64,000 nucleotides of DNA from Nitrosopumilaceae archaeon (GTDB lineage: Archaea; Thermoproteota; Nitrososphaeria; Nitrososphaerales; Nitrosopumilaceae): NCBI GenBank assembly GCA_965208905.1, contig OZ242365.1, positions 1,088,001 to 1,152,000 on the forward strand. Direction: 5' to 3'. Under the pieces are notes generated by a model, which worked only from the letters and a program-made list of their open reading frames with translations, was not told where the DNA came from and made no database searches. Below are positions 2,664 to 44,533 of this stretch, in pieces; position 1 is the first letter of the stretch, and each line of letters begins with the position of its first letter. A program made the translations under genes and the position numbers.

Positions 2664-2745
2664 AATTATACATTAGAATAACATATTTTTAAAAGATTAT
2701 GATTTGCCAAAAATAGATTAATGGTTATGCAGCCATGCAGATATA

Positions 2746-4988: not shown

Positions 4989-5441
4989 TATTTATTATGC
5001 GCCATGGAGGGGTAATTATACCTATAGATTTTGGTCTGGCGATGGTTTTTAGAGGTTGGATATCTATTACGGGTGGCCACATACTGGTCTTGAGTATGAT
5101 ATTGCAAGCCAAAGGTTGTAACATATGTTTGATGCGTAGTGAACTGAATTAAAATCCTTATATGATAGACAATAATTTCGGCTAAAATTAATACAAAAAT
5201 CACATAAACATAATATTGTACCAAAGACTCACAAACTGGATTATATCATAACGATATCTACGCAATTAGAATTACTGTACAGCAAACAGGATACAAGTGG
5301 GTTATACAGAATAAAGACATGTATATCCACCCCGCAGCAACTTGTTGCGGTAATACACCTAGGCATACTTAATGACTCTTAGATGGTCGTACATCTTGGC
5401 TAATTTTATCTCCCCTGTACAATATATGCAATTTATGGACT

Positions 5442-5774
5442 CTACAACCTCAGCTGAAAGTGTGTTGTTTTTGTCTCTTGCACTGCCCTTACTGGCTTGA
5501 TCAGAACAACTAATTTATTCAAAAACCCCAACATATTCCCTTTGAGATTGCGGTATTTGATATACATTTTCGGCAGTCGAATCTCATGCTGCCCGCACAT
5601 CTGACGATCAGAGCCTATGTGAAACCGACCAAAACACGGGCCCTGGCCCACCATACCGTCAAGTTTAGGTAGAAACATCTTCAGCGCCTCGATCTTTCTG
5701 GTGTCCGACACCCGGTTGGTACGTCTCCGTAGAACATCTGCAGGTGTATAATACTCAAATCTTTGTGCGGTCAT
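5442..5774 (-). CDS. hypothetical protein (possibly a remnant)
   Basis: 110-aa ORF whose ATG overlaps the tatD stop (ATGA coupling); no recognisable motif. Confidence 0.3.
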   Translation of the reverse strand: MTAQRFEYYTPADVLRRRTNRVSDTRKIEALKMFLPKLDGMVGQGPCFGRFHIGSDRQMCGQHEIRLPKMYIKYRNLKGNMLGFLNKLVVLIKPVRAVQETKTTHFQLRL

Positions 5775-10392: not shown

Positions 10393-10876
10393 TGCGCCTG
10401 CAGGGCGGCGGTCTTGCCGTCCACAATCTGGGCAGGCGCGATACGTCGCAGTGGCCCGTACGACTCCAAGCCTTGGCGAATCACGGCTTTAGGCATTCGA
10501 TGCCTGTCGTCTGTACCGTGCTGCACGCCGGAGACCATCGGGTCGCCGGCAGGTGCTATAGGGAGCCGAAATCGGAAGATCACTCTTTGTACTGACCAGA
10601 CTGGCAACATCATATGTTGTTTGACTCTCATAGTTTATTATTGTACAGATATGACGGGGTTGCCCAACAAGCGTATTCATGCCGCTTGCGGTCAAATCTG
10701 GGGCGGTCTGGCGCGGGTTTCTGCCCCTCCATAATGCCACATAGTGTGGTATTTTTGCCTCGCAGGAGCCTATTTTGACGGCGCAGTTGTCCGTTTAAGC
10801 AGATCATAAGCCATACATGCCTGTATATGGAGTAGTGATGCCGGTGTTCTGTGTTGTTGTACTTTGGCACAGGGAA

Positions 10877-11447
10877 TTATATACCTGGGTATGCACGCGT
10901 AACATACGCGTACATTCCTAGATGCTTCATGGCGCTTGATGTTTTGGGTCGATTGCACGCTTGATTCTCACGCCGCCGTCTGGCGTCCGGAACTGCACAA
11001 ACAGGTGGCTTCCGGGTCCGGCCCATTTCACGCCTTTCGAGGGCTATTCCTTCCCCCGCGGGAACCTCTCGTCTGGTTCCCCGTTGTATGATGTTTACCG
11101 ACGCATTGCCGTCGGCATTTGCTACATGCCCACATCCCATACACTTGAACATCTCCCCATTTCGGTTCTCCTTGGATATGTAGCCGCATATACTGCACTC
11201 CTGGCTCGTGTGTTTTGGACTTACCTCTACTACATGGATGCCCAGCCGCTCTGCGATAATGCGTATTTTTCGCAGTATTGCATAATGCCGAATAAACCGC
11301 ATACCGCGATTCAGACCTGTCTTGTGCCTGCCACCGCGCCTGCTCATGGCCTCTAAGTTGAGCTGCTCGACATATATTACATCCACGCCCTCGCATATCT
11401 TCTTGGCTAGAAGCCACTCCGCATACTCGCGGTCATTCGCATTACCC
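10877..11447 (-). pseudogene. tnpB: tnpB C-terminal fragment (RuvC-II, zinc ribbon, RuvC-III)
   Basis: VIYVEQL, TSQECSICG...FKCMGCG..NADGNASVNI; cut at the IS3 insertion. Confidence 0.9.
10891..10915 (-). other. subterminal hairpin at tnpB 3' end (candidate omegaRNA stem)
   Basis: Minus strand ATGTACGCGTA-TGT-TACGCGTGCAT, an 11-bp stem with one G-U pair, adjacent to the TIR. Confidence 0.45.
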
Positions 11448-11519
11448 TGGTGGGGACCCCGCTAGAATGAGAACACTCACGTTCATACAGCTTAAAGTCG
11501 TAATGGGAGGGATGATGCC

Positions 11520-11810
11520 ATGGTAAGAACAAAGTTTACTCCAGACCAAAAGATCCAGATCGTTTTGGAATCAATCAAGACCAATATTGGCACGGCCGAG
11601 CTGTGCCGCAAGCACAACGTTCATCCCCAAACGTTTCAAGCCTGGCGGCAAAAGTTCATGGACGCAGGCAAGTCCGGACTGACCCATCACGGAAAGAAGG
11701 ATCCGATAAAGGCCATCAAAAAGGAGAACGGCGACCTAAAGCGAATCATAGGGGATCTGACAATCGCAAACGACGCTTTAAAAAAAACCTTGGAGGCAAG
11801 CAACGATTGA
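11520..11810 (+). CDS. IS3 OrfA (HTH + leucine zipper)
   Basis: KFTPDQKIQIV...ELCRKHNV...W HTH_Tnp_1 pattern. Confidence 0.9.
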   Translation: MVRTKFTPDQKIQIVLESIKTNIGTAELCRKHNVHPQTFQAWRQKFMDAGKSGLTHHGKKDPIKAIKKENGDLKRIIGDLTIANDALKKTLEASND

Positions 11811-12637
11811 ACGCGGTAAAAATCATGCAGGAACAACATTTGAGCCTGCGCAAGTCGCTAGGGTATGCGGGCGTATCCAGGCGCCAATGGTACTACAAAC
11901 CCAAGCCCAGAGACATGGGATTGAATCCGGATATATTGAGCACTGTGCTAGATACGAGCAGAAAGAGGCCCACGTACGGCACACGGCGCATGGCGGCCCA
12001 GATAACGCGCGATACGGGAATTGTGGTGAACCGCAAGCAGATACAGCGGATATATCGCAAAATGGGCTACATCCAGCCACAAAATACCAAAAACGACATC
12101 ATTCGAGCGGGTCAAAAGCTCTTCAAACCCAAAGCCCCACACCAGTTGTGGGAGACGGACATCACATACATCTGGTGCGGTATAGACGGCTGGTGCTACT
12201 GCTTCAACGTAATTGACTGCTTTACGCGCAAGTGGATCGCCTACGCGTTTGATGTCAATGCCACACGAGACATTGCAATCACCTCAATCACCAACGCGGT
12301 TGCCGCAGAGAAACCTGACTGCTCACAATTACGATTGCGTACGGACAACGGCAACCAGTATACGAGCCGCGACTTTAGACATGCGGTTCAGGCCCTTGGC
12401 ATCGGCAAACATGAATTCATCTACAAGAATACGCCGGAGCAGAACGGACATGTCGAATCATTTCACAAGACGCTGAAAAAGGAATACATCTGGCCGCACG
12501 AGTTTGCGAACTATCAGGAGGCAGAGACGATCATTGCAAAGGCCTTTGTAGATTACAACACCGAGAGGATTCATTCCTCTATCGGATACATGACACCAGT
12601 AGAATTTGCCGAACAGTTGGAGATGACAAATAAATGA
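11780..12637 (+). CDS. IS3 OrfB DDE integrase, joined to OrfA by a -1 frameshift
   Basis: WETDITY, RTDNG.QY, NGHVESF..LK.E; slippery TTTAAAAAAAAC at 11777-11788. Confidence 0.9.
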   Translation, partial: KKNLGGKQRLNAVKIMQEQHLSLRKSLGYAGVSRRQWYYKPKPRDMGLNPDILSTVLDTSRKRPTYGTRRMAAQITRDTGIVVNRKQIQRIYRKMGYIQPQNTKNDIIRAGQKLFKPKAPHQLWETDITYIWCGIDGWCYCFNVIDCFTRKWIAYAFDVNATRDIAITSITNAVAAEKPDCSQLRLRTDNGNQYTSRDFRHAVQALGIGKHEFIYKNTPEQNGHVESFHKTLKKEYIWPHEFANYQEAETIIAKAFVDYNTERIHSSIGYMTPVEFAEQLEMTNK

Positions 12638-12694
12638 TGGAAGATGTATGTAAAATCATGCCGAAAACAGTAACATTCTATGGGGTCCACTCCA

Positions 12695-12769
12695 ACCCCG
12701 GTTGTACTTTTCTCGTTTATGTTTAATTTTACGTGTTGAGTTTGAGTGTTTGTTGTGGTGCGATATGGT
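12695..12769 (-). pseudogene. tnpB: tnpB middle fragment
   Basis: Encodes TISHHNKHSNSTRKIKHKREKYNRG, in frame with both other fragments once the TSDs are collapsed. Confidence 0.85.
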
Positions 12770-12942
12770 GGGACTGGGAAGAAATGCTGACCTAGGGAAA
12801 GTGCTGACCCGAAGTGGGAAGAAATGCTGACCTGACCTATATTTCCACTCCGACCCCAATTTCCACTCCGCTAATTTGACCAATGTTTCCACTCCAGACA
12901 TGAACTACCCTAATGTTGAATAAAAGATGAAAAATATACTAC

Positions 12943-14328
12943 TTATTTTTGCTTGGCCTTGGCAGCAGCCTGTATGAGAGTCATCCACTTGTTATCACCC
13001 TGTACAATTATACCGGCGGCCTCTGCCGGAGTCTGGTTATCTGATAATCCAAGGTGTGAACGCACAAAGTTATGATATAACTTCAAACCTGTTATGATAC
13101 CCGAATCCTCGCGCTTTAGACCGCGCGTTACCTTCTCACGGTGACGTAACGTGTTCCCATTGAACGACTCCATCTGGTTGTTGTGATGTATGCCATCAAA
13201 CGCGACATCGTTTACATGTTGGGTTTCTTTGTGCAGAAAGTTCTTGGCTTTGTATTGTCTCTTCCATGCATTGTGGAAGTTTGTAGCACCGTCTGATATC
13301 AGGGTATCCGGAACCTTGCCTGCTATACATTTGGCCTGCTTGAACATTGGAGCCACATCATCATTGCCCTTATGTTCAGCCACCATCTTTGAAATCCAGT
13401 ATCTTGTATCTGAATCCAACATGGCAAACAAGTATCGCTTGTTGCCCTTAATTTTCAAGTGCAGCTCATCCGTTCTCCATTCCTCTCCGACCTGTAGTTG
13501 TATTGTATCAACATAGGACTCCATTAGTTTGGCGTAGGTAGCGGCCCAATTCTGTATGGTTCTGTAGGTTATCTTGGGGCCGTTCTGCCCCAACTGTCTT
13601 GCCACCTTCCTGGATGACAATCCACTAAAGTACATTCCTACTGCCGTACAGATGTCATCCGGCGTGGTATGCTTCATCTCAAAGCCAAGGTTCTGAATGA
13701 ATCGTCTCCCACATGTTTTGCAGCCGTACTGCTGTTTCTTGCGACACTTGCCCTTCTTGATGATATTAGTAGAGTCACAGAACTTGCATCTGGTGTGATC
13801 ATGCGGCTGTATTATACGCCGTTCACCATTATGCCACTGGACTGCTTGAATGTGTTTGCATGTACTCCCTGTATGTATGTGGTCCGGGCATGAACACATC
13901 CACCCGCTACCGAAATTACGCACCTCGTATGATTCATCAGTACTCTGTGATTTGACTAGATAGTGGTCGTGCGATATACGTTCTACCTGATTATTGGCCT
14001 GATGTATCATCATGCCGCGGTCAGCACGCGCCTTTGCGCCAAGATGCTCTTCTAATGCATATGCATGCTTGCAATATATCGCATCATCAGGACATGTACA
14101 GTTCCAGCTTCGGGCTGTCCGTGTCAACGTATACTTGACGCATGGTTCAGTCTGTGAACACACCTCGTATGTAGAATCATCTACTTGACGAATCTGATTC
14201 TTTTGTTTTGTTATCAATATGCCTCGTTGTTTTCTGTAATTCATTTGCATGGTAGCGTATCGGCACCATTTAAGGCGGTAAAAGTCAATCTTGAGGTATA
14301 GGAGTACTCCTGTGAACGCTGTGGGCAT
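12943..14328 (-). CDS. IS6-like DDE transposase with two N-terminal SWIM zinc fingers and a C4 zinc ribbon
   Basis: CTCPD..YCKH and CSCPD..TCKH (SWIM); CKFC..CKTC; HTH; WRTDE, LISDG, NNQMESF triad; true start probably 14250 or 14244. Confidence 0.88.
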   Translation of the reverse strand: MPTAFTGVLLYLKIDFYRLKWCRYATMQMNYRKQRGILITKQKNQIRQVDDSTYEVCSQTEPCVKYTLTRTARSWNCTCPDDAIYCKHAYALEEHLGAKARADRGMMIHQANNQVERISHDHYLVKSQSTDESYEVRNFGSGWMCSCPDHIHTGSTCKHIQAVQWHNGERRIIQPHDHTRCKFCDSTNIIKKGKCRKKQQYGCKTCGRRFIQNLGFEMKHTTPDDICTAVGMYFSGLSSRKVARQLGQNGPKITYRTIQNWAATYAKLMESYVDTIQLQVGEEWRTDELHLKIKGNKRYLFAMLDSDTRYWISKMVAEHKGNDDVAPMFKQAKCIAGKVPDTLISDGATNFHNAWKRQYKAKNFLHKETQHVNDVAFDGIHHNNQMESFNGNTLRHREKVTRGLKREDSGIITGLKLYHNFVRSHLGLSDNQTPAEAAGIIVQGDNKWMTLIQAAAKAKQK

Positions 14329-14777
14329 ACATAAAATGGACTATCTGGCAACTCCACGGGTTGTAAGGGACTGGGAAGAAACGCTGACCCAGAGTCGAAA
14401 TGGAGGTCTTGTACGATTAGGAGTGCGGAGTGGAAATTGTACGTCTGGGGCGGAAACATAGGTCAAATCACTACGCGCTATTTTGGGGCACACGCTATAT
14501 TTGGGACAGTTCAAAGAGTGGTCCACTCAACATCCCGTGAAAACCGAGCTATGACTATCATCTTTGAGGAGTGCTTGAGTCCAGAGATAACATGACAGTA
14601 GTGTGTGTACTGGCCGGAGGGAGGCTGTAAAAACCAGTCCTATAAAGGGGCCTAGACTAGAAATGGCATAAGGTGTGTGGTAGGTGCATGAGGTCAGTTT
14701 TAGTGAACTGAGTATAAGGCTATGTACCATCATTTTCTGTCTTAAACATTGAAATTAACGATAAACGTTCGTGACAT

Positions 14778-15255
14778 ATGCGAGGCTATTATGCGATACA
14801 GGTTTGTATGAATGGGCATGTTATCACTGATCGGCATAGGTGGGACGACGTCGAATATTGTACAGAATGTGGGGAGAAGACAATAATCAAATGTCAAAAT
14901 CAAAGCTGTGGTGAGGAGATACGTGGTGAGTCAACTACCCCCTCCAATTTCCCGCTCGCTGTAGGTTGGCCCAGCACCAAATAACTGTCATAAATGTGGA
15001 GAACCATACCCTTGGACACGGGATAAGATCGAAGCACTTCAGAAGTTGATAGAGTTGTCATCTCTGGACAAGGAACACAAAAAATACGTGTTGGATGAGG
15101 TTGTACACATCATAAGTGAAACACCAAAGACCAAAATCATTTGTGATGTATTTAAGAAAATCATTCCTGAAGATGAATCATCGATTTGGTCTGTACTCAT
15201 AGAGGTGGCTACACAGAAGGCAAAGGACATTCTAACCGGCGTGTCACCGACATAG
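14778..15255 (+). pseudogene. DUF2321-like Zn-ribbon protein, one frameshift
   Basis: QVCMNGHVIT..YCTECG..C..CG.EIRG in one frame continues as CHKCGEPYPWT in the next; removing 1 nt near 14940-14975 gives about 158 aa. Confidence 0.7.
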
Positions 15256-15322
15256 ATGGCAATTTACATGAAACCATCCAGATTTCCACAATGGGAGCCA
15301 AGAAAAGAGTAGCCTTTGTTAA

Positions 15323-18274
15323 TCATCCTTCCAAATCTTTCCGACCCAAATGCTTCTCATGTACCAACCAATCGTATATCTGTTCTAAGTTGTCCACACT
15401 CAATCCCAATATATCCGAAACACGCCTGTCAATCTCTTGTCGCACCTTATCACTATCCACCATATTGATGGGCTTCATCTCCTTTTTACAAAGGTCATCG
15501 AAAACCCCATCCAACTGTGTGATGATGTGTTCGTCCATGCTAGCAAAATCCGGCACAGGCATTTGTCTGCATGACGTTAGTGTCATCAAGCCACGTTCAG
15601 TTTGCTGTGAGTTGGATACGAACCAATATGTGAGTATTCCAAAGATTGAGTTAAACCATACCATAAACGCTTTTTCATGATTACTATCATTCAGTCTGAC
15701 GTTGGGCCATGCACTACCACCAACTGTCTCCATCTCCGTATATGCGGCAATCAATCGTTGGGAGGTATACCGAACATACAGGTTGATGTGTGTATGTGTT
15801 CTTGTATCCCAAACATTGTTTACCTGTTCCTTTGTTGCATCTTGTTTTTTCTCTAATGAATAATCCGGAGGCACAACCATAATTCGTTGTGTTTTAGCAT
15901 CATTTCCCCACAAACACTGGTATCTTTGTCTGCGCCCGTATCTGATTTTTATAAAAGGACCCTGCGGAGTACCATCATGTTTGGTTCCAATTATGTCAAG
16001 GTGATGTTTCCCCATGTACGATATTTCTCCAATAGTAGTCATTTCAATACCCAACCCACCATTTATCAGACTGTATGCAGTCTGTAAGAGAAATATGTTT
16101 GATGTTCTGGTCAACATCCATCGTCCATCTTCCACAGTACAGTCTAACATATCGCCAACATGTGTGTCTCCTAAAACAAGTGACGTTCCACCCATGCAAT
16201 GCTCAATTCTATTGGCCGGTGTTTTTCGTATGATTTTTGCAACCTCCAACCCTCCAAGACGTGACGTAGGTAGTTTATTGAGCAATACAAATTTAATTCT
16301 GGGAAATTGCCCTTCTGGCCACTTGGTTGTTCTTTTACGGGCTATCAATACCACCTCCTCCATTCCTGTACCGGCAGAGAAGGTCAACTCATCAGTTCCT
16401 GCTGAACGACGCAGTCTGACTACTGTTATGTCATCGTACCATTGGTTCAATACTTCACGTATGTCTGACCATGCCGAACCAGAAGTCATGGTAGCTGGCA
16501 GTATGAAGCCCATCACACCACCTGGTTTTAGTTTCCGATGGGTGATTGCAATAAAGTATGATGCCAGACCGGCATGTCCATGAGATCCGGTTTCGCAGAA
16601 GAGGTTAGCGTTGGTTTTTCCCATATCACTCTGTATATCCGGCGGTATACCAAATACAGCAAAAGGAGGAACCGGGTCGGTTCGTCCACTGCCGTGGTTT
16701 GTAGCCTTTACGAATGGTGGATTCATGAGTACAAAATCAAACGATTCAGAACGAAGCCTCACACTCGTAAGATTCTGTCCGCCTTGTCCACCATGTCTTT
16801 TACCAACATCTCCAGATAGTGCCTCTATCTCAAGGCTTATGGAGTCTTCACTAATTTCTGAATCTACATCTCTAATAAGATCCAACGAGCCCAATGAACG
16901 AACAGGTTTACGAGGCCGTGTCTTTACCGGCATCGGTGTCCCTATTGGCATCTGGTATATTCTGGCTTCTTTGAATATGTTCGCGGGATATAACACAGCC
17001 AAGTTGGAAACTGTCAAATGTGTTGCGGTCGGCATTATATCAAAACCCCACAATACATCAGCCATTACTGTGGGGTGCATCTTTGCAATATTCTCGTCAT
17101 TGGCATGACAATGTATTATGTGGTTATATGCGGCGGTCAGCAACATGCCGGTGCCACACGCAAAGTCAGCTATGCGGAGTTTCTCTATGCGAGATTTATC
17201 ATTCCAAATTTTATCACTTATCGGGGGCAATACAAGTTCGGCTAAAAGTGTAGCAGCTTCAGGTCTAGTATAGAATGAGGCCGATTTTTTTCGTTCAATT
17301 AGGTCATTCTGATATAATGCACCATATACATCGCCAGAATTCTGCATGCCGAGACTCATTACAACTGAGACTGTTTGAATTATCACATCTATAATGACAG
17401 ATGCAGATCGTTCCGGTATCACATTAAACAGGTCGCGTGTAATCTCAAAGACTGGACCATAATTGATGTCCAATACAGATTCCATACCATTCATGATGTC
17501 ATATTTGGTGGGCTTGTTTGTCAGAGAACCAATGGATGTAAGTGTCTTTATTTCGTCTAGATGTGAAGATAGTTCTTCATAAAAGATACTTCCATTGAGT
17601 AGCATCAACGCGGCCATAGACATAGCTTGTCTGTCACTCATACCATACAGGGTGTCAGTACTCTTGTTATAGCCCAACAAACTGATTATCTCTGACTTGA
17701 CACCGTTGTCAGCATCAACCAATGTATTGGCTATACTGTTTATCTGCTTCTGAATAATTTCTGTATACTCATCTTCAACATTGCGTGATACTATGGAAAG
17801 GCGTGTCGCCGTTATAACATCGGTTATGTTCCCCCTTAGGTATCCGTTGGTGGGAAATCTGTTGGTGCGGTCATGTACAAAATATTCCAGCTCGGAACTA
17901 CCAAACTTTGTTCGAAAGTCATCCGCGTCATCTGCATGCGCAAGCTCGTCGGGGAACAGCACCCCGACTATGGCTGACGGTGTGATGTTACCTTCCTCCA
18001 ACGTTACTTCTAAACGGTCGCCGACCTCCCGCTCCAGATTGCTCCTGTCTGTCTCCAACTCAATAATTACGGCTTGGTTTACGCTTCCTGTCCCCTTTGG
18101 TCGCACTATGATGTCAGGTCGCTTGCCGTGTTTACCAGAGACGGTCCGTGTCCTCTCGGCCTTTGCAGTACACCAGCCACTGTCATTTATGACCTCTGCT
18201 ACCCAGGGGTTGATTGCAGACTCTACGGCCCGGCCACCACGACGCGTTATGGGAAGCAACCTCCGTCCGGCCAC
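15323..18274 (-). CDS. Type IIG-like fused restriction endonuclease/amino-methyltransferase
   Basis: N-terminal RPDII..IIELE nuclease motif; FYTRPE, IADFACGTG (motif I), MNPPF (motif IV); C-terminal TRD-like region. Confidence 0.85.
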   Translation of the reverse strand: MAGRRLLPITRRGGRAVESAINPWVAEVINDSGWCTAKAERTRTVSGKHGKRPDIIVRPKGTGSVNQAVIIELETDRSNLEREVGDRLEVTLEEGNITPSAIVGVLFPDELAHADDADDFRTKFGSSELEYFVHDRTNRFPTNGYLRGNITDVITATRLSIVSRNVEDEYTEIIQKQINSIANTLVDADNGVKSEIISLLGYNKSTDTLYGMSDRQAMSMAALMLLNGSIFYEELSSHLDEIKTLTSIGSLTNKPTKYDIMNGMESVLDINYGPVFEITRDLFNVIPERSASVIIDVIIQTVSVVMSLGMQNSGDVYGALYQNDLIERKKSASFYTRPEAATLLAELVLPPISDKIWNDKSRIEKLRIADFACGTGMLLTAAYNHIIHCHANDENIAKMHPTVMADVLWGFDIMPTATHLTVSNLAVLYPANIFKEARIYQMPIGTPMPVKTRPRKPVRSLGSLDLIRDVDSEISEDSISLEIEALSGDVGKRHGGQGGQNLTSVRLRSESFDFVLMNPPFVKATNHGSGRTDPVPPFAVFGIPPDIQSDMGKTNANLFCETGSHGHAGLASYFIAITHRKLKPGGVMGFILPATMTSGSAWSDIREVLNQWYDDITVVRLRRSAGTDELTFSAGTGMEEVVLIARKRTTKWPEGQFPRIKFVLLNKLPTSRLGGLEVAKIIRKTPANRIEHCMGGTSLVLGDTHVGDMLDCTVEDGRWMLTRTSNIFLLQTAYSLINGGLGIEMTTIGEISYMGKHHLDIIGTKHDGTPQGPFIKIRYGRRQRYQCLWGNDAKTQRIMVVPPDYSLEKKQDATKEQVNNVWDTRTHTHINLYVRYTSQRLIAAYTEMETVGGSAWPNVRLNDSNHEKAFMVWFNSIFGILTYWFVSNSQQTERGLMTLTSCRQMPVPDFASMDEHIITQLDGVFDDLCKKEMKPINMVDSDKVRQEIDRRVSDILGLSVDNLEQIYDWLVHEKHLGRKDLEG

Positions 18275-18623
18275 CTCTTTGCAGTATTAAATCTACCAAA
18301 TGTTTTGTAGCTTGCTTTATAGTGCCAATAGACGCACCACAACCGTGATGATTGCCCACCGCTAGTTGTTCGTGCCGCCAAGCACTGTTCGTGCCGCCAA
18401 GCACTGTTCGTGCCGCCAAGCACTGTTCAGCTTCCAAGGTCTGCGAGCACCCTCTCTGCATTAAGAGAATGTCTATCCTTGACTGCGTCTCCCCAATTTC
18501 CAACACCGTCGCCTTTCTCTTGGATTCAATCTTTGATGCCAGCCCACAGTAGATAGCCCGATGCTGGCCTTGTTTATGCCGGATAATGTTGCCCTTGATG
18601 GTCTTGAAGTTGATGGAACTCAT
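18183..18623 (-). CDS. hypothetical protein containing a 19-bp tandem repeat
   Basis: ATG-started ORF upstream of and co-directional with the RM gene; its C-terminus depends on repeat number. Confidence 0.4.
   Translation of the reverse strand: MSSINFKTIKGNIIRHKQGQHRAIYCGLASKIESKRKATVLEIGETQSRIDILLMQRGCSQTLEAEQCLAARTVLGGTNSAWRHEQLAVGNHHGCGASIGTIKQATKHLVDLILQRGGRTEVASHNASWWPGRRVCNQPLGSRGHK
18367..18428. repeat. 19-bp tandem repeat x3.3
   Basis: (TGTTCGTGCCGCCAAGCAC)x3 + TGTTC, perfect copies. Confidence 0.95.
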
Positions 18624-18935
18624 ATAGAAAATATAGACGATCTGTTAATAAGGTTATACGAACAGCCGCCTCCAAACTCAGTGTTGTAAGAACTTTTAAC
18701 CTAACTGAACTATTAAAATTATGATCTGGAATTGTCCTGACCTATGTTTCCGCCTCAGACCAACATTTCCACTCCGCTAAAACATACCTCGTTTCCACTC
18801 CGCACGCCTGATGTATAACTAATGTACTCCAACTACTATTTCCAGTCTAGGCACCACTTTGGGACAGGCGCCATTAATGGGACAGTCCACACAATCAATC
18901 CCCTTTTAATATAATGTCGTTTTGATAACCACATT

Positions 18936-19454
18936 GTGGACTGGTACGCGGAGATTTTACCATCAATTATGTCAGCATCGATAGCGATTGCCATAATAAC
19001 TACACTTGTGCTAGCAAGGAAGGACAAGAAACGCGAGTGCCGCGAGAGGCAAGCTACGGAGGTAAAGATGCTGCTTGATGCACACATGAACTTATGGAGT
19101 GGCCTGCGGCAGATGGAGGCGCATGCTGCTGGTATACCTGATAGGAATAAGCAGTCGGGTAGTCACGCCCTGTTGGTAGACGACTTCAAGTGGCTTCGCG
19201 ACGTATTACGCAACGAGTCGCTCATGTTGGCGCCCGAGATACATGATGAATACGTCAAGTTTCTCAAAGAACCCCTGAAGCAGGCAATGTTTGGCCTCGG
19301 CAGCTATATCCCCGCTAGCTCTCACATATATGGTGCGTCAGATACACCGTACTTGGCTAACCTCTCCAAAATGCAGCAAATAGCCGAGAAGCAGTGGAAG
19401 AAGTATGAGTCCGAATACCGCATGCTTGGTGGAAAGTATCCGCACGCCAGATGA
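18936..19454 (+). CDS. hypothetical protein with N-terminal TM helix
   Basis: 172-aa ORF with hydrophobic segment SIMSASIAIAIITTLVLA followed by basic residues. Confidence 0.65.
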   Translation: MDWYAEILPSIMSASIAIAIITTLVLARKDKKRECRERQATEVKMLLDAHMNLWSGLRQMEAHAAGIPDRNKQSGSHALLVDDFKWLRDVLRNESLMLAPEIHDEYVKFLKEPLKQAMFGLGSYIPASSHIYGASDTPYLANLSKMQQIAEKQWKKYESEYRMLGGKYPHAR

Positions 19455-19476
19455 TCTTCCAATACCTCAACCCACA

Positions 19477-20430
19477 TTACGCCTCAACAGTAGGATAGTC
19501 AACATACTCGAACTTCAGCGACTCTATCATGGCCTTGGCCTCCTCAACACATTCAAACTTGGGCGAACACACCAGATAACCTATACCGCGCCTCTCCTCC
19601 GTAAACCCGCCTTGGCCGACCCGAAGGGCTATGACACACCGGTTCTCCGGCAGATGAAGTCCCCACTCTTTTGGTATGAATATACTCCACGGCTGCTGCC
19701 AGTGTTCCATGTATGCAACAACCACTCCCGGGCGGTACCTGCGCATCTGCCCCATCTTGCGCGTCAGGGTGTGGAAGTTGGCATCGGCATCGTCTCCCCT
19801 ACCTCCGTATTTTGTGACGTACTTCATTTTGGGGCGGTACTTGCCCGGATCAATGCAGAACTCGCCCCCCACATACACACCGCGCTTCATGGTACATGCC
19901 TCTTCGTATGCAAGCGGACCAGTGCCGTACCAAACCTCTACGTCCCACCTGTTGTTGTTCATGTCTTCAATGTCAATGTCAAATGTATGTTTGTTGTCAC
20001 AGTCCATATGTTCCACCTCGATGTCCACTATTCGGAATCCTGCCTCGTAGAACCACTTGGTGACGCGCGCCTGAACTGCAATCCCGCCCCCATCACTGCC
20101 TGTCTGCAAGCGATCCAACTCCCTGTCGACATCGCCCCGCAACTCGTAGATGTTTTGGGCCGTCTCAAATTTCCGCATCAGGTTGGGGTGTAGCCGGCGC
20201 AATTCGTCAATGTCGGGTGCATCCTGCCGCTCCAATATGTGTCGCAGGGTTCGTGTTCGACACAACTGTCCACGGTAGTCCGTGATCTGTTTTGTGATGG
20301 AATCGTACTTCTTGGCTTGGCCCTCCCGGCAAATATTGGACTGGTTTGTCTTCCACCACTCCAGCAACTCGTCCAACGTTTTGAGGCCCGCGCATGGGTC
20401 AAATTTTGCCATGCTCTGTTCCCGATGCAC
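19477..20430 (-). CDS. hypothetical protein, possible PD-(D/E)XK-fold nuclease
   Basis: 317-aa ORF; GFRIVDIE..FDIDIED..WDVEVW pattern resembles a restriction-endonuclease core. Confidence 0.55.
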   Translation of the reverse strand: MHREQSMAKFDPCAGLKTLDELLEWWKTNQSNICREGQAKKYDSITKQITDYRGQLCRTRTLRHILERQDAPDIDELRRLHPNLMRKFETAQNIYELRGDVDRELDRLQTGSDGGGIAVQARVTKWFYEAGFRIVDIEVEHMDCDNKHTFDIDIEDMNNNRWDVEVWYGTGPLAYEEACTMKRGVYVGGEFCIDPGKYRPKMKYVTKYGGRGDDADANFHTLTRKMGQMRRYRPGVVVAYMEHWQQPWSIFIPKEWGLHLPENRCVIALRVGQGGFTEERRGIGYLVCSPKFECVEEAKAMIESLKFEYVDYPTVEA

Positions 20431-20652
20431 ATCTTCTATTAAGGTTTAGCTTTGACCTGAACTGTCCCAAAGTGGTGCCTAGACTAGATATAGGGCCATG
20501 TTTAGTGGAGGGGAGATTATACGTCTAAGGTGGAAACGTAGGTCACCAACTTTCCAATTCTGGGTCAGTGTTTCTTACCAGTCCAGATTATGATGTGTAG
20601 TGTTTGTCCAAATAACACCCGGAATTCAGAAAAACCACGTCACCCGCAGATA

Positions 20653-21555
20653 TTAGGTTCGGCGCTTCCCAGTCTTACATTGTTTAAGTTTCAGCAGCAG
20701 TCTTTTAATATCCTTCTCATCTCTTACAGGCGCATAGTAGTTGCCCGTACCGTGGTGGCCAGGATCGGATACATCCTTTACAAATTCATCTTCCGTAAAA
20801 TCACCCTTCCGACCAAAATAGACTTTGATCTTACTACGCTGAACTATCGCGGTGCATAGTAGATACTCACCATCACGCCCAAATCCGACATAGTATTTCG
20901 TTGGCAATTCCTTTACTCCTGAGAATGTAGAGAGCATCCTATCACGAAGTGTCTTGTATAGTGGGTTTTTGGATTCATGTGGATTGGTGTTCGAAGTTCG
21001 TTCTTGCTCTGTGTTGGTTTCAAGTATTTTAGGTGTAGTCTTTACGGCCGTATCTATTGGACCGCGTTTACCAGCTATATACCTCAGTGTCACAATCCCA
21101 TTTTCAAACTTCCTTAACTCATACAGGCATTCATTATCTTTTTTACCCGCAGCGTATATCTGATCCTTGTTAAACTCTGGTGCGACGATTATTGCATAGA
21201 TGTTATTCCACTTGAATGAATTCGGATCCTCATGGGCGTTATACGATTTATTGTATGCCAGAGTCAGTGTAGCGCGATTATCATCCATCTTATTGAGATA
21301 GTTTTCGGCCTGCTGGCGAACCGTATCAGAACGCCTGTTCTTGTACTCGATTGCTACAAAAGTATGGGCTTGGGGGTCATATACAACCGTATCTGGAATT
21401 TTGTCTGATATTTGCATCTTACTTTTGACCAACTTTAGATTTGGAAATAGTATGTGTAGATTATCTTCGAACCACTTGTGTTGTTTACTCTCGTCGGGAA
21501 AGTTAACATCGTCCAACTCACAACATCCTTTGGTGGATGTGTAGAATGTACGCAT
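20653..21555 (-). CDS. NucS-like PD-(D/E)XK nuclease fused to DUF5655-like domain
   Basis: E...W.E.NL..LF, PDTV..FVAIEYK..QA..Y, IIVAPEF; C-terminal TKYYVGF..DVS..GH.GTG. Confidence 0.72.
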   Translation of the reverse strand: MRTFYTSTKGCCELDDVNFPDESKQHKWFEDNLHILFPNLKLVKSKMQISDKIPDTVVYDPQAHTFVAIEYKNRRSDTVRQQAENYLNKMDDNRATLTLAYNKSYNAHEDPNSFKWNNIYAIIVAPEFNKDQIYAAGKKDNECLYELRKFENGIVTLRYIAGKRGPIDTAVKTTPKILETNTEQERTSNTNPHESKNPLYKTLRDRMLSTFSGVKELPTKYYVGFGRDGEYLLCTAIVQRSKIKVYFGRKGDFTEDEFVKDVSDPGHHGTGNYYAPVRDEKDIKRLLLKLKQCKTGKRRT

Positions 21556-21752
21556 ACGTTTTTGGTATAATGGCGATATTTAATATTGTTGTAAATGTGA
21601 AGTCATGCCTGGACTAGTAATGTAGGTATGCAACCACCATTTCTACTCCGCTAAAACAGATCTCATTTCCAGTCCGGACGCCTGATGTATAAAGACCTGC
21701 GTTTCCAGTCCGGGTCAGTACTTTCCCTAGGTCAGCATTTCTTCCCAGTTCC

Positions 21753-22456
21753 GATATGGTACGGCGCGTCTCATCATTCCATGTACGGTTCGTGCGGAAT
21801 GCGGTTGCTGTATCGTATGATGTGATATTTGAGGTGTTATGGTCTGTCTTGCACACGACGGTCGGATTTGTTATCCCCCTGTCTATGCCGGCAACAACCC
21901 CGGTCTTGGCGCACCGTTCGGGTGCCGGTACGTCATATGTTATGTGTAGCCGGTAGATATGGTCACACGACTTGACATGCACCCACGACTTTGGTGTAAC
22001 CTGCACCAAACGGAAAGACCTGGCGCCATACAGCCAGTTGTGTGGAAATTGATATGACTGCTCCTCGCACAACTCAACAACACCAAGGCCCGGCAATGAC
22101 GCGTGCCTGTTGTCCACATATACAGGCTGCACATCACATGATACTGCCTTTGTATTATCGCGCTTTCTGGAGCGGAAACTTAGTTTGCCGTTGCCGTATT
22201 TGTTCGAGACATCCGCAGCAGTGCGGGCTTGGTGTATGGCAGTATTTTGGTATATACGCTCTACTGTTTGCAGCCACTGCACGGAACGCCTCATCTTGGT
22301 GAACTCCCTGGAGAGATCATATGTAGTGAGTGTGGGGTTAGTAAGCAGCCGCTCCACGGCCCAGTTGTACACGAACCGCTGTGAGTCCCGTATTTTAGAT
22401 ATGTGACGCGCCTGAGAGCGTGTCAGGTCTATGCGGAAACCATAAGACCGATACAT
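21753..22456 (-). pseudogene. tnpB: tnpB N-terminal fragment (HTH, RuvC-I)
   Basis: MYRSYGFRI..RFVYNW, FRSRK, LPGLG, AGIDRG; reads into the 9-kb transposon TIR after RRTIS. Confidence 0.88.
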
Positions 22457-22581
22457 GTAGTTTTATACACTATAATACTTTATAAATATGTATCCTACAG
22501 GACTTGCCTTGCCTGCCCAGGCATATAATTCCCTTGGCACATGTAGATGGATTTAATATTCATAATACAACAAGAGCATCA

Positions 22582-23145
22582 ATGATACATACCAAGTGGT
22601 CAGATGACTTTATGGGGATAGCGTATAGATACTTTGATCTGCGCATGAATATTGTTCCCTTACTGCCCCATAGAAAGAAGGCATTAAAGATGTGGCAGGA
22701 TGTAATACATTGGTGGTATGATGCATCCATTCGTGTCAGGTTTATAGAGTATCCAGACCAGTACAGGTTTGTCATAGGTGCCGAGTCGCGAAGACCCGAC
22801 TCGAATGTGTCATTTTACAAAATACTACACAAATCGCCACACTATGAGCGATTCAAGACAGGGTATGGTGATGCAGCATATCTGCGTCTGGGAGAGTACT
22901 CAACAAAGAGACTACAGGATGTAAAGGATTCAGATGTATGCAACTGTGGTCATCCGGCAGGAGACCATGCAGATGATGAGAGTACAGAGTGTCTGGAGGA
23001 CGGGTGTGATTGTAATGAGTTTGTTCAGACGCAGGTGTACATGTTGCGGCGTAAAAAGACCATAACAGACATTGTATTCTTGGATTATACGGATATAGAA
23101 AAAGATCCATTATCTTGGAACTGTATAAACTCCAATCCTAGTTGA
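22582..23145 (+). CDS. conserved hypothetical protein with Cys/His cluster
   Basis: CNCGH...H...C..C.C motif; the track start (22504) lies inside the mobile element, so ATG at 22582 is preferred. Confidence 0.75.
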   Translation: MIHTKWSDDFMGIAYRYFDLRMNIVPLLPHRKKALKMWQDVIHWWYDASIRVRFIEYPDQYRFVIGAESRRPDSNVSFYKILHKSPHYERFKTGYGDAAYLRLGEYSTKRLQDVKDSDVCNCGHPAGDHADDESTECLEDGCDCNEFVQTQVYMLRRKKTITDIVFLDYTDIEKDPLSWNCINSNPS

Positions 23146-24466
23146 AGCGACTACGGTCACCACGACTGCCGCGACCACCACGACTGCCACCGCCGCGGTT
23201 ATTGTCTCGACCAGTGTCTCTACCATTCCCTCGACTGTAACCGCCACGGCCACCAAATCCGCCACGGCCAAAGCGTCGACGACCCTGCCCATTTCGGGGC
23301 GGCCCACCTCTATGAGAACCCACAACACGCTTGAGGGGGTCGGGTATATTCACCTCTATTCCTAACTCTTTGTTGAGGTCTGTGAGTTCTACTTTTATCT
23401 GGCGCTTTATCAGATTCCAGTCAGATATTGACGAGTATGACACAAATGTAATGGCCTTGCCCTTTGCGCCTGCGCGAGCAGTCCGTCCTATGCGGTGAAA
23501 GTATATCAAATCCTGATTGGGCACATCATAATTTATCACCAACTGTACCCGGGGAACGTCTATACCTCTAGCTGCAACATCGGTTGCCACAAGGATCTCA
23601 GCCTTACCGCTACGAAATTTACCCATGGACAACTCTCGGCGGTGCTGTGACATGTCACCTTCTATGGCCACTGCGTCTAACTTTTGACGATGTAGTATTC
23701 TAACCACATCCCGTGTTCTATACTTGGTAGAGCAGAATACTATCTTTTGTCCTTTAGTGTCCGCTATAAAGTTGAAGAGATGTTCGGGTTTGTCACGATC
23801 TTTGAGTACTAGAAACGACTGGTCTATGCCCTCACCGCTGAGATCATCGGCATCCAACAAGAATTGTTTTGGGTTTTGTAGATACTCTTCAGACAATCGC
23901 AGTATCTCCACTGGCATTGTAGCAGAGAACATTGACATCACCTTCTCCTCGGGAACCAAATCCAAGACAAACTGTATGTCATCTATAAAGCCCATATCCA
24001 GCATGGTGTCGGCCTCATCAAGTACCACATGTCGTATATCGTTGAGCTCAATTGTGCCACGTTTTATGTGATCAATTAACCTACCAGGGGTTGCCACTAA
24101 TATTTCAACTCCTCGTTCCAGAGAATCTATTTGCACGTTCATGCTCTGACCACCATAGATGGTAGCTACACGAAGATCTGTATACTTGCCAAACTTTCGT
24201 ATCTCATCGGTTATCTGCATCGCCAGCTCACGGGTTGGTGCCAAGATCAGTCCCTGAATAGTTCTGTTGGGTGGTATATCCTGTAGCATGGATACAGCAT
24301 ATGCTGCAGTCTTGCCAGAGCCTGTATGAGCCTGTCCTATGACGTCCCGTCCAGATAACAGGACGGGTACTGCCGCCTCCTGTATGGGAAAAGCTTCCTC
24401 GAAGTTTATCTTATCTAGTGCTTTCAGGATAGTCTCGTTTATTCCCAGATCACTAAATTTTGTCAT
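23138..24466 (-). CDS. DEAD-box RNA helicase
   Basis: Q motif, GSGKT, PTRELA, DEAD, SAT, ARGID, HRIGRTAR, RGG-rich tail. Confidence 0.96.
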   Translation of the reverse strand: MTKFSDLGINETILKALDKINFEEAFPIQEAAVPVLLSGRDVIGQAHTGSGKTAAYAVSMLQDIPPNRTIQGLILAPTRELAMQITDEIRKFGKYTDLRVATIYGGQSMNVQIDSLERGVEILVATPGRLIDHIKRGTIELNDIRHVVLDEADTMLDMGFIDDIQFVLDLVPEEKVMSMFSATMPVEILRLSEEYLQNPKQFLLDADDLSGEGIDQSFLVLKDRDKPEHLFNFIADTKGQKIVFCSTKYRTRDVVRILHRQKLDAVAIEGDMSQHRRELSMGKFRSGKAEILVATDVAARGIDVPRVQLVINYDVPNQDLIYFHRIGRTARAGAKGKAITFVSYSSISDWNLIKRQIKVELTDLNKELGIEVNIPDPLKRVVGSHRGGPPRNGQGRRRFGRGGFGGRGGYSRGNGRDTGRDNNRGGGSRGGRGSRGDRSRFN

Positions 24467-42507: not shown

Positions 42508-42946
42508 ATCAAGTGGTAGTCGATTTTCGGATTGTCGCATAACGAAATTGACTGAAAACAACACAAAACGGACCGGTTAAGCGGAGCCTGTATGGTCAGC
42601 TAAACCACATATACTTCTGCTGTCCCATCTGTATTCAAATTTGTAACTACATTCTAATTCAAATTAGTATATCCGAATATAACATCCGCTAGGTGGTTGA
42701 GGCTGCCTTCATGAAACAGTGAGATGGTGCACTGTGAGACAAAAATACGTAGATGTTTTCAAACCCTGGAATTGTTCATGAACCTTGTCCCTTCAGCATG
42801 GTCTCAGTCCTCAAATCTGAGTTATTTTTCCGCCTCCTAAATAGTATCAACACTAACTCAACATTATTGATAAACTACGTCACCCGAACTATATAAGGAA
42901 TGACACGTGAAGGGGCTGTTAAGTTAACGTGAGTCAATATTTGGTG

Positions 42947-44492: not shown

Positions 44493-44533
44493 AAATGATG
44501 TCAAGAAAACACAAAAAGGAGTAAGATGTGGGA

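Follow-up and report, generated by a model that had tools for sequence, protein, structure and literature searches.

A stretch of 64,000 nucleotides (the window) from an archaeal genome carries at positions 12770-21752 a real transposon of 8,983 bp, in which every module is bounded by units of the element's own end motif. Judged by sequence similarity, the five spacers that hold these units are standard end units of an IS6-related transposon family with a double-SWIM transposase and are not peculiar to the 9-kb element. On balance, we favour the reading that the element is a composite unit transposon, which grew stepwise behind its transposase gene and left former or alternative right ends inside.

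The transposon and its insertion site

In a self-comparison of the window, the outer inverted repeat (12770-12820 and 21702-21752) spans 51 nt with 90% complementarity. It is flanked by two identical 8-bp copies of the target-site duplication GATATGGT, located at 12762-12769 on the left and at 21753-21760 on the right side. For reconstruction of the empty site, the element and one copy of GATATGGT were removed by script and the remaining sequence was aligned. The reconstructed site aligns unbroken across the junction to seven paralogous copies of a TnpB element at 82-91% identity (91% for 554494-555343, to name one); the host site is thus a TnpB element interrupted by the insertion.

The transposase gene (12943-14328, minus strand) encodes two SWIM zinc fingers, a Zn ribbon and an IS6-type DDE domain. 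Its product matches the Pfam profiles DDE_Tnp_IS240 with 45.5 bits (cut-off 27) and SWIM with 31.4 bits, while the NCBIfam IS6 profile yields 85.7 bits, under its cut-off of 125. Residues D261, D320 and E361 as well as both CxC...CxH motifs are invariant among 27 relatives, and the true start of the transposase is probably M27 (position 14250; 433 aa), as in at least 30 relatives. Profile searches found no other recombinase encoded in the 9-kb element. A previous sequence-only reading had proposed an IS6-like SWIM-DDE transposon, which is borne out by the inverted ends, the duplication, the empty-site match and the DDE and SWIM profiles.

End units and mosaic cargo

All five spacers, A to E, are populated by a 19-bp repeat (GACCnnnnTTTCCACTCC), whose polarity from A to E is +,-,+,-,+. 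The core TTTCCASTCC, earlier described as iterated, indeed occurs nine times in the 64-kb window as compared to 0.16 expected copies, a count reached in 0 of 100 shuffles; eight of these copies fall in spacers A, B, C and E. Using a 19-nt weight matrix derived from genome copies of the repeat, we obtained 14 window matches at a threshold of at least 15 bits, 13 of them in the spacers, in agreement with the claim that the spacers are built from the element's own end motif. Matches are forward in A (three), C (three, plus one at 12.3 bits) and E (three) and reverse in B (three) and D (one). Hence, the alternation of core orientation proposed before is real. The fourteenth match, at 22168, is a motif within the TnpB element that is common to TnpB paralogs.

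Spacer A (12770-12896, plus strand) is identified as the left end by self-comparison, matrix matches and a layout like that of other family left ends. Its two alpha tips (12770-12792 and 12810-12832) point left; next come three forward 19-nt cores from 12834, 12852 and 12878 with 26-27 bits each. Spacers C (core 18738-18889, plus strand) and E (core 21611-21752, plus strand) are classified as right-end units by self-comparison, matrix and unit alignments, E being the one in use. In C, four forward cores precede a double beta tip that points right and ends at 18889, and the unit is alignable with 20 other right-end units; in E, three cores are forward and one is reverse, and the alpha tip extends to 21752.

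By self-comparison, matrix and their mutual alignment, spacers B (core 14367-14513) and D (core 20458-20585), both on the minus strand, are complete MITE-like units in reversed orientation. B shows a left-pointing alpha tip at 14367, reverse cores at 14390, 14426 and 14446 and right-pointing beta tips at 14471-14513, and is 83% identical to part of a MITE at 1698519-1698704. D shows a left-pointing beta tip at 20458, a right-pointing alpha tip at 20561-20585 and, in addition, reverse cores, of which one was scored (20526) and a weaker one was recognised by eye. Between B and D, the tips are inverted while the cores are direct repeats, and the two units are reciprocal tip hybrids (alpha...beta and beta...alpha). 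A degenerate tip-like stretch at 14620-14664 (plus strand) is 79% identical to 20464-20491 and 77% to the reverse complement of 18838-18868, and the weight-matrix scan detects no cores downstream of it.

The structural observation of the sequence-only reading is thus confirmed, including its shared blocks. Extra TIR-like copies had been placed at 14367, where 14367-14392 is 92% identical to 12770-12795, and near 20561-20584, where 20534-20584 pairs with 14368-14418 at 75%. The block said to be forward in C and reverse in B is recovered as 18738-18768, matching 14435-14465 in reverse complement at 87%, and the 49/55 match between 18764 and 21638 as 18759-18818 and 21633-21692 (88% over 60 nt). 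Overall, at 72-94% mutual similarity, the internal units are too divergent to be recent copies.

Terminal GRACTG, as at validated termini, is kept by all seven tips in the element. Right-pointing tips with an intact GRACTG lie at 14513, 18889, 20585 and 21752, one in each of the four spacers (B to E) that lie right of the transposase gene, and the outward-facing tips may thus constitute four nested right ends. Reading the flanks by eye, we found no target duplication around B, D or 14631-18889, nor is there one at any internal unit, as expected if these are ends or junctions and not later insertions. The 8 bp preceding 14367 agree with those following 20585 at 5/8 positions (GGTTGTAA and GATTATGA), which weakly hints that 14367-20585 was once inserted as a unit.

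The cargo is a mosaic. A DUF2321 fragment of 68 aa (14778-14984, plus strand) covers profile positions 2-51 of 157; what had been listed before as DUF2321 is no more than this fragment. The adjacent gene (15323-18274, minus strand) encodes a 983-aa protein containing an N6-adenine methyltransferase of the Eco57I or type IIG-like restriction-modification kind, which matches Pfam Eco57I and N6_Mtase, PADLOC MTase and, weakly, REase_MTase_IIG, with no nuclease domain among the matches. Upstream of it lies a perfect 19-bp x 3.3 tandem repeat (18367-18428), contained in a 146-aa ORF (18183-18623) that overlaps the methylase start; this ORF, previously listed in one module with DUF2321 and restriction-modification, is doubtful as a gene. 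A 172-aa ORF (18936-19454, plus strand) and a 317-aa ORF (19477-20430, minus strand) follow. The last gene (20653-21555, minus strand) encodes a 300-aa PDC-S18-type protein with a C-terminal DUF5655 domain. Residues 1-292 match PADLOC PDC-S18, a candidate defence family, with E=7e-46. Pfam DUF5655 is matched weakly (21.4 bits, under the cut-off of 24), and the earlier label NucS for the N-terminal part found confirmation in no search.

GC3 amounts to 0.60 and 0.66 in the middle two ORFs, 0.42-0.43 in the methylase and PDC-S18 genes and 0.51 in the transposase gene, so that compositional boundaries fall at units C and D. In sister species, the methylase gene has a DNA homolog (66-75%) with no family repeats within 19 kb and the 317-aa ORF one of 72%, the surroundings of both being devoid of family repeat clusters. 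A sister species shares the 5' part of the PDC-S18 gene together with inner spacer E (21231-21675) at 92% identity, a match that stops inside the spacer E array.

Assembled contigs were inspected from runs X1, X2 and X4 (one sample, the likely source) and from run X5, a separate study. A 4,201-base contig (14196-18396) bridges B and a 2,926-base contig (18860-21785) bridges D and E, both with zero differences from the window, so assembly is not the cause of the spacer layout. Among the pieces listed, contigs of the two studies match the assembly wherever a spacer is crossed. The X5 population has identical modules, and one of its contigs bridges D in unchanged arrangement. At every contig joint reported, the letters are those of paralogous copies (MITEs, TnpB elements, the 1658-kb locus); none of these joints represents a deletion or inversion of the locus.

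The family in the genome and its relatives

The host is a sponge-associated ammonia-oxidising archaeon. Its 2.2-Mb genome contains 49 core/tip clusters of the family, with 170 core matches of at least 12 bits compared to 42 when the genome was reversed as a control. When 21 right-end units are aligned, a conserved unit of about 140-150 bp emerges, with a tip-like inner boundary motif in 8 of 10 units examined. Family ends measure about 130-150 bp and combine a tip beginning with NGRRCTG and an array of the 19-bp subterminal repeat, which is presumably the binding site of the transposase. Perfect 8-bp duplications flank four of nine tip pairs examined (the 9-kb element, a 34.9-kb composite, a 2,075-bp and a 1,821-bp element), one pair shows a 6/8 match and four show none; in this examination, three free-standing MITEs had no target duplications. 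MITE-like units are abundant, some family MITEs being ORF-less, and hybrids of differing tip types are common (at least five clusters besides B and D).

The layout of the 9-kb element recurs in the 34.9-kb composite of the same genome and in an 8-9-kb element of another species. The 43-bp ends of the composite (1251085-1285965) are perfect and flanked by an 8-bp duplication. Its empty site is present in sister genome G205, with locus positions 1-1508 aligned to the right flank and 1499-3110 to the left flank. It contains seven right-end units, whose arrays all share one orientation, and two left ends, a right-end surplus for which simple nesting of whole elements fails to account. In transposase-bearing composites, 11 of 11 right-end-type arrays are directed away from the left end that is proximal to the transposase: C and E, two in G202, and the seven of the 34.9-kb composite, which has two transposase copies and fits this polarity relative to the right-hand copy only. 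As to related elements, where the sequence-only reading had suggested comparing cargo, four double-SWIM elements have only the transposase gene and the units in common and differ completely in cargo, and two non-autonomous elements share ends of 91-93% identity but no interior; this is the result which that reading had counted in its favour. Family cargo is rich in defence genes, i.e. restriction-modification systems, PDC-S18, SIR2 and toxin-antitoxin parts.

Probable stepwise growth and its alternatives

Stepwise accretion would have started from a core of about 1.7 kb, consisting of the left end, the transposase gene and unit B. Growth would have proceeded outward by repeated pairing of the left end with a right-pointing tip further out or, alternatively, by joining of new DNA at an existing end unit, each step gaining one foreign segment and retaining the old right end inside. 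We infer that the methylase segment came first, followed by the GC-rich two-ORF segment and PDC-S18, and likewise the mode of addition. The latest event was insertion of the whole 8,983 bp into the TnpB element with an 8-bp duplication, similar to IS6-type replicative transposition. No intermediate was found, neither the left end with transposase and B alone nor a copy ending at C or D. The reversal of B and D relative to C and E speaks against accretion, which accommodates it only because MITE-like units are tipped at both ends.

It is rather unlikely that the island was built otherwise and that family MITEs or solo ends later entered its intergenic spacers, in which case the units would say nothing about the arrival of the modules. 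Such colonisation agrees with the intergenic position of every unit, the plentiful MITE-like units and the mixed-tip hybrids elsewhere in the genome; the three free-standing MITEs likewise lack duplications, so that the lack of one argues only weakly against insertion. However, duplications are missing from all internal units, right-end array polarity is uniform across three composites (11/11), co-orientation of seven out of seven arrays in the 34.9-kb composite has a chance of about 1 in 64, the GC3 boundaries match C and D, and the sister-species homologs of the methylase and the 317-aa ORF lie without nearby clusters.

The reciprocal tip hybrids B and D fit a single recombinational integration of 5.9 kb at least as well as accretion. 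Hereby, some 5.9 kb of DNA (14514-20457), circular or of foreign origin and with a beta/beta unit, would have recombined with an alpha/alpha unit between the transposase gene and PDC-S18, either by homologous recombination or transposase-mediated like IS26 translocatable units; the hybrids B (alpha...beta) and D (beta...alpha) would remain as directly repeated units. Inverted tips with direct cores are what a crossover within two directly oriented units should yield, and translocatable units and IS6-family arrays are described in the excerpted family review (PMC7986276). As an account of the element we nevertheless consider one-step integration unlikely: tip hybrids are common in the genome, so the B/D reciprocity may be fortuitous, the duplication pairs to be expected are weak or absent (outer 5/8, inner 1/8; flanks by eye), the shared cores of about 80% over about 40 nt are poor substrates for homologous recombination, and unit C and the layouts of the other composites are left unexplained.

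An active platform, at whose arrays the transposase now adds, inverts, drops or exports single defence modules, would be in line with the GRACTG kept at all seven tips, with the many structurally competent sub-elements delimited by left- and right-pointing tips, and with the entirely different cargo of relatives. We regard it as improbable, given the absence of a dedicated recombinase gene, the divergence of the internal units and the X5 population that is unchanged across D. Moreover, the assembled contigs of the two studies contain no rearranged form of the locus; contigs are blind to rare variants, so this absence is weak evidence. The interpretation of the sequence-only reading, a cassette platform or else serial self-nesting, is partly supported. 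Nesting is nearer to the data than a purpose-built platform, since the units inside the element belong to the ordinary end units of the family, the transposase is the element's only recombinase, alternation is no family rule (7/7 co-oriented arrays in the 34.9-kb composite) and rearranged forms are absent from the contigs. Finally, it is very improbable that the 19-bp repeats are operators for the SWIM/HTH protein or a host factor controlling the cargo, their position at module borders reflecting promoters: at least one gene starts downstream of each of B, C, D and E, but the repeats are linked to transposon termini genome-wide and present in ORF-less MITEs, unit A lies downstream of a gene, and the putative PDC-S18 promoter stretch (21556-21610, by eye) is outside the unit E array and within the 92% sister-species match that ends inside this array.

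In ISEcp1-type read-through, adjacent genes are captured via alternative right ends. The proposed stepwise growth resembles this, as the left end would pair with a distant right-end-like sequence while the old end is kept inside; yet ISEcp1 has a transposase of another family and alternative ends that are weak look-alikes, whereas here they would be genuine family units from abundant MITEs or solo ends. Integron mobilisation units are MITE-flanked composite elements, and the outer alpha tips of B and D (14367 and 20585) similarly enclose 6.2 kb of cargo; in contrast, this pair lies inside a larger autonomous element, consists of reciprocal tip hybrids and has no flanking duplication. Mu and Tn7 possess several subterminal transposase binding sites per end, asymmetric between left and right. 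The repeated-site arrays inside each end, likewise asymmetric and with a putative binding role, are comparable, although the transposase architecture is unrelated.

With IS6/IS26 the element shares the IS6-type DDE domain (Pfam PF13610, over cut-off) and, according to the excerpted review, 8-bp target duplications and GG..CTGT..AAA-type tips; the beta tip TGAACTGTCCCAAAG of the family agrees with the IS6 tip motifs quoted there (PMC7986276). The review excerpt further reports arrays of IS6 members and loss of flanking repeats; such arrays likewise interleave gene modules with repeated element sequence, and inner units often lack flanking repeats in both (PMC7986276). The members covered in it measure 700-890 bp, with 15-20-bp inverted repeats, a passenger gene in one only and two MITEs listed (PMC7986276). 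Here, by contrast, the ends are 130-150 bp long and include iterated 19-bp subterminal repeats, two SWIM fingers are present in the transposase, and the inter-module repeats are end or MITE-like units, not whole IS copies. Furthermore, each of the two structures of 9 kb and 35 kb moved as one unit between inverted tips, unlike IS26 compounds with their direct IS copies.

Clade i, compared by description only, comprises three ISfinder members of 1710-1760 bp, whose transposases of about 450 aa carry a zinc finger and a further N-terminal extension (PMC7986276, excerpt). Both the long transposase with Zn-binding N-terminal extension and the putative core 12770-14513 (1,744 bp) resemble this description. 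In the excerpts, the related clade h is placed in Clostridia (PMC7986276), to which transposases with added N-terminal domains are also assigned (PMC6807381), and neither hosts nor cargo or complex ends, the latter two as in the 9-kb element, are given for clade i (PMC7986276). The IS6-related family with a two-SWIM-finger transposase is so far undescribed, and our literature searches and the review excerpt (PMC7986276) agree with the earlier statement that no described IS6-like element is built in this way. Arrays of the IS6/IS26 type are known, while here cargo separated by end units has moved as a single transposon.

Insertion site, core repeats and tips

The host genome is a single contig of 2.21 Mb with 45.6% GC. 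Since it encodes an archaeal AmoA and since near-identical DNA is present, in part, in a run labelled sponge metagenome, the host is an ammonia-oxidising archaeon and probably sponge-associated. The element at 12770-21752 is 8,983 bp long, has inverted ends of 51 nt (90% complementary) and is flanked on both sides by GATATGGT, an 8-bp direct target repeat. Its insertion target is a TnpB (IS200/IS605-type) gene. The empty site was rebuilt by a script that deletes the element and one GATATGGT copy; hereby, the rebuilt site aligns without a break across the junction with seven other copies of the TnpB element, at 82-91% identity. Given the inverted ends, the GATATGGT flanks and this unbroken alignment, the insertion is precise and real. 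An IS3-family element (about 11500-12697; transposase 11603-12637), whose last ~395 bp are repeated at 13 other places in the genome with 99-100% identity, has inserted into this TnpB element as well, at a distance of just about 75 bp from the 9-kb transposon. The spot is thus an insertion nest.

The sequence-only reading of this DNA had placed alternately oriented arrays of the element's own end motif between its cargo modules. Every one of its repeat blocks was found again by self-comparison of the window. The motif TTTCCASTCC is indeed iterated, with nine occurrences in the window against 0.16 expected, eight of them inside spacers A, B, C and E. A scan with a 19-nt core matrix, (G)ACCnnn[AG]TTTCCACTCC[AG], built from clustered genome copies, reproduces the alternating core polarity (A +++, B ---, C +++, D -, E +++). 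Of the matrix matches in the window, 14 score at least 15 bits, and 13 of these fall within the spacers; the fourteenth (22168) belongs to the TnpB element and was found again in its paralogs. Genome-wide, 170 matches reach at least 12 bits; the reversed sequence, as a control, gives 42.

Cores and three tip types (alpha, GGGACTGGGAAG…; beta, TGAACTGTCCCA…; gamma, TGAACTGTTCAG…) were mapped across the genome and fall into 49 clusters. Hereby, in a left end three forward cores come after an outward tip, which is often doubled; a right-end unit has a single reverse core and three forward ones before its outward tip; and a MITE comprises a left tip, cores and a right tip within 170-210 bp. The tip types combine freely among family units. 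Right-end units can be aligned in 21 cases across about 140-150 bp, and a tip-like inner boundary is recognisable in eight of ten examined; matching flanks, as expected of MITEs with their own duplications, were seen in none of these eight. A fourth tip type around CTGTCAAAAA was dropped as unspecific, with 248 genome-wide matches at up to one mismatch. At 47211-47233 of the window, a right-pointing tip of alpha type, GGTCAGCATAACTTCCCAGTTCC, stands alone; neither a partner nor cores lie near it. Elsewhere in the genome (1658092-1658400) lies a truncated copy of parts of the 9-kb element, namely its left end and the 3' end of its transposase (96% over 168 bp), with its tip 8 bp from that of a reversed beta right-end unit. 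Such tip-to-tip placement of family ends seems to occur more than once, a further case being at 1256360-1256505.

Read with this grammar, spacer A (12770-12896) is the left end and spacer E (21611-21752) the right-end unit in use, while spacer C (18738-18889), in the same orientation as E, is a second right-end unit with a beta tip. Spacers B (14367-14513) and D (20458-20585), both reverse, are complete MITE-like units of 147 and 128 bp, each with its two tips and with internal cores; in B the left tip is alpha and the right tips are beta, and D, beta left and alpha right, is its reciprocal. All seven element tips keep the terminal GRACTG found at validated termini. Since each spacer right of the transposase gene has one right-pointing tip (14513, 18889, 20585 and 21752), the single left end has four nested candidates for a right end. 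Reading the flanks from the sequence revealed no target duplication around any inner unit. When 8-bp signatures, direct or reverse-complement, were compared by eye among the seven tip flanks, only the outer pair matched, besides a partial match of 5/8 positions between the 8-bp flanks to the left of 14367 and to the right of 20585. The lack of duplications at the inner units and at the free MITEs of the family (3/3) provides the sole, indirect hints at cointegrate transposition.

Transposase, cargo and related elements

The transposase (12943-14328, minus strand) has an IS6-type DDE domain, whose triad is unchanged across 27 relatives, together with a four-cysteine ribbon and two CxC…CxH motifs of the SWIM type. 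It scores 45.5 bits against Pfam DDE_Tnp_IS240 (cut-off 27) and 85.7 bits against NCBIfam transpos_IS6, under the equivalog cut-off of 125; an IS1 model also matches (46 bits), and a shorter relative bears the name 'IS1/IS6 family transposase' in one database. Four copies in this genome extend to the N-terminus (64-78% identity), and nine further copies are without the first ~80-100 residues and hence have one SWIM only. Core arrays accompany only the four double-SWIM copies. Across the order, 88 of 201 sampled genomes contain a match at E 1e-20 or better, and among the matches listed the first 17 residues are reached only by this genome's four copies. The tally includes G108, flagged as unpublished, on which no conclusion depends. 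Within the genus, full-length matches to the double-SWIM part number four in this genome and one each in the sister-species genomes G205 and G202. In a large protein collection, 36 of 57 matches cover at least 80% of the first 215 residues; the usual length of about 433 aa among these relatives suggests M27 as the true start. A 96% identical transposase (P0001) is encoded on a contig of 2,128,233 bp. A search of genome contigs with the single transposase gave one distant, partial match, and a search of metagenome contigs with an alignment as query gave 15 loci at 33-45% identity, where most longer matches start near residue 65-91, as expected of the single-SWIM form.

At the locus of the double-SWIM copy in G205 (L046, G205:C1:1707000-1726900), the 19-nt matrix finds no core arrays. 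Here, a direct duplication of 300 nt at 100% identity (5313-5612 and 10608-10907 of the locus) brackets this only double-SWIM transposase gene of G205, and the 5,295-bp spacing is kept by further short repeats that extend to about 1.4 kb.

The cargo of the 9-kb element includes a 983-aa methyltransferase protein of Eco57I / type IIG-like kind, with Eco57I and N6_Mtase domains at residues 314-608 and weak matches to IIG models; in residues 1-280 no nuclease domain was found, and a PDB sequence search gave no solved relative. A 300-aa protein matches PADLOC PDC-S18 (E=7e-46) with residues 1-292/300 on profile positions 1-299/302. This full-length profile match supports its assignment to PDC-S18, a database candidate for a defence role; a PDB sequence search with it gave nothing usable. 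The DUF2321 frame of the sequence-only reading is present, albeit truncated. Two other ORFs have no assigned function. One of them, of 317 aa, matches none but unnamed clusters in the ESM Atlas and has a homolog in a sister species at 72% DNA identity. Distant paralogs aside, all cargo genes are single-copy in the genome. GC3 amounts to 0.60 and 0.66 in the two middle ORFs compared to 0.42-0.43 in the methylase and PDC-S18 genes, and the composition breaks fall at units C and D. Methylase homologs of sister species share 66-75% DNA identity and have no family repeats nearby; as such repeats are absent within 19 kb of the homolog in G204, it gives no information on breakpoints. In one sister species the 5' part of the PDC-S18 gene is joined to the inner part of unit E (92%), and the similarity stops inside the unit.

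About 100-150 bp upstream of the methylase start lies a perfect 19-bp x 3.3 tandem repeat (TGTTCGTGCCGCCAAGCAC, 18367-18428), and an Rfam scan of 11000-24000 gave nothing at E up to 0.1. At genome 1697901-1698704, a paralog of the N-terminal half of the PDC-S18 protein (36% identical) and a family MITE of 186 bp are separated by about 85 bp, which mirrors the gene-next-to-unit arrangement at 20653-21752.

The same layout recurs on a larger scale in a 34.9-kb composite (genome 1251085-1285965; L051, L052) with perfect 43-bp beta inverted tips and an 8-bp duplication, GATACGTC. As its flanks are contiguous in G205 (L073; 10-base overlap, 95-97% identity), it is a genuine 34.9-kb insertion. It carries two double-SWIM transposase genes and seven right-end-type arrays of one polarity (six tips by mapping, one by eye). 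Encoded between these arrays are two type III restriction-modification systems, SIR2-like and DUF3800 proteins and several proteins outside defence; genes of host-interaction type (cyclophilin-thioredoxin fusion, matrixin, TPR) are also present. The G202 element (L078, G202:C73, 112-9381) consists of a left end, a transposase gene, 6 kb of cargo and two successive right-end units with different tip types, 0.7 kb apart; its cargo encodes a Schlafen/AlbA_2 protein and a 1,430-aa protein in which Mrr, helicase and methylase are fused, and no duplication was seen at either candidate boundary. Perfect duplications of 8 bp (CCTAAAAC and TAATTTTT) flank two non-autonomous elements, one of 2,075 bp and one of 1,821 bp. 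The 2,075-bp element shares 91-93% identical ends with a 2,496-bp one and nothing else. Among the four double-SWIM elements compared, likeness is confined to the transposase gene and the units. Homology among family members thus ends at the units, in line with the breakpoint test that the sequence-only reading had proposed for the spacers.

The window holds a second, simpler IS6-like transposon of 3.4 kb (42912-46320) with an inverted repeat of 50 nt (84%) that begins GGGGCTGTTAAG. Its transposase (42947-44224, minus strand) is of the single-SWIM form, and its cargo comprises a D12-class methylase and a HaeIII-type restriction endonuclease; neither core arrays nor an evident target duplication were found in it.

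Probable growth of the elements and relation to IS6 systems

Taken together, these elements have long structured ends, generate 8-bp duplications, move as units of 1.8-35 kb and carry mosaic cargo bounded by end units. An integron-like cassette platform would use a dedicated site-specific recombinase with cognate sites; here, the repeats are transposon end motifs, and a Pfam and NCBIfam scan, which also took in the neighbouring IS3 transposase as a tenth query, returned no integrase or resolvase family in the nine frames inside the element. In an IS26-type pseudo-compound transposon, cargo lies between directly repeated whole IS copies, whereas the 9-kb element has one transposase gene, end units of 130-150 bp and inverted outer tips with a duplication.

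Mechanistically, the transposase would bind the 19-bp repeats, perhaps via its SWIM fingers, and cleave at the NGRRCTG tip, and transposition may be replicative, as the consulted part of PMC7986276 describes for IS6 members. Right-end arrays have uniform polarity relative to the transposase-proximal left end (11/11 cases in three composites), and right-end units outnumber left ends; both features point to element growth on the right side. Such growth could proceed by two routes. Either the left end would pair with a right-pointing tip lying farther away, for which the abundant solo units and MITEs are a possible source, or an existing unit would be the point where DNA is joined on, as in IS26 translocatable units. 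The tips of B and D, reciprocal around the middle 5.9 kb, fit the latter; both routes are compatible with the present data.

In the contigs of the likely source sample, the depth of the element equals that of flanking single-copy DNA, and B, D and E are bridged as assembled. In the run of a second study, the modules are found at about 95-99% identity, and one contig bridges D in an unchanged arrangement. The contig joints 12868>21662, 12724>21753, 18886>12775, 21748>18839, 20545>21692 and X5 18814>14473 were rejected as rearrangements and assigned to paralogs, as they show paralog letters or a depth unlike that of the element; MITEs, TnpB elements and the 1658-kb locus are the paralog sources of the letters inserted at joints. 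One arrangement dominates, and dominance is all that contigs, being blind to rare variants, can show.

The sequence-only reading had offered a modular platform or, else, serial self-nesting. Hereof, self-nesting, or accretion, is favoured, while an active platform is unproven. It seems rather unlikely that the end units serve as interchangeable ends or crossover sites, such that segments between outward-facing pairs could be exported, dropped or added in a transposase-driven defence cassette system. If true, IS26 translocatable units would have a counterpart in archaea that is made of 150-bp units rather than of whole insertion sequences.

In its workings the element resembles an IS6/IS26-type system, but it fits only part of the IS6 definition. 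It shares the 8-bp duplication; its DDE domain is supported by Pfam, whereas the NCBIfam equivalog model stays under threshold, and it departs from IS6 in size and simple organisation. IS6 tips are described, in the consulted part of PMC7986276, as short related inverted repeats of 15-20 bp with GG at the tip and cTGTt / caaa motifs, and the members as 700-890 bp long, with one passenger-gene case and two MITEs. Here, the beta and gamma tips contain CTGT and AAA (TGAACTGTCCCAAAG, TGAACTGTTCAGTT), and the alpha tip begins with GG but is without CTGT. The ends far exceed the IS6 repeats in length, having an inverted repeat of 51 nt and subterminal arrays. An IS6 element of about 0.7-0.9 kb holds a transposase only, whereas the present one has 8,983 bp and at least five other ORFs; its smallest conceivable core would measure 1,744 bp. 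A survey of mobile elements in the phylum reports, in its consulted part, IS-like transposons with 1-2 genes (PMC6563490), and the full-text literature searched, covering parts of PMC6563490 and PMC7848895, gave no description of such elements in these archaea.

IS6-related transposons of 3.4, 9 and 35 kb, together with the 8-9-kb one of a sister species, carry defence genes, two of these transposons being validated by target duplication and empty site. Their combined cargo spans type II, IIG-like, III and ISP-like restriction systems, PDC-S18, SIR2 and antitoxin-type genes. This widens the picture of IS6 in four respects: the ends are long and structured, the transposase is double-SWIM, some cargo elements are non-autonomous, and unit transposons can be very large. 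No genetic system is known for these archaea, and a natural cargo-tolerant transposon with defined ends would therefore be a candidate starting point for one.
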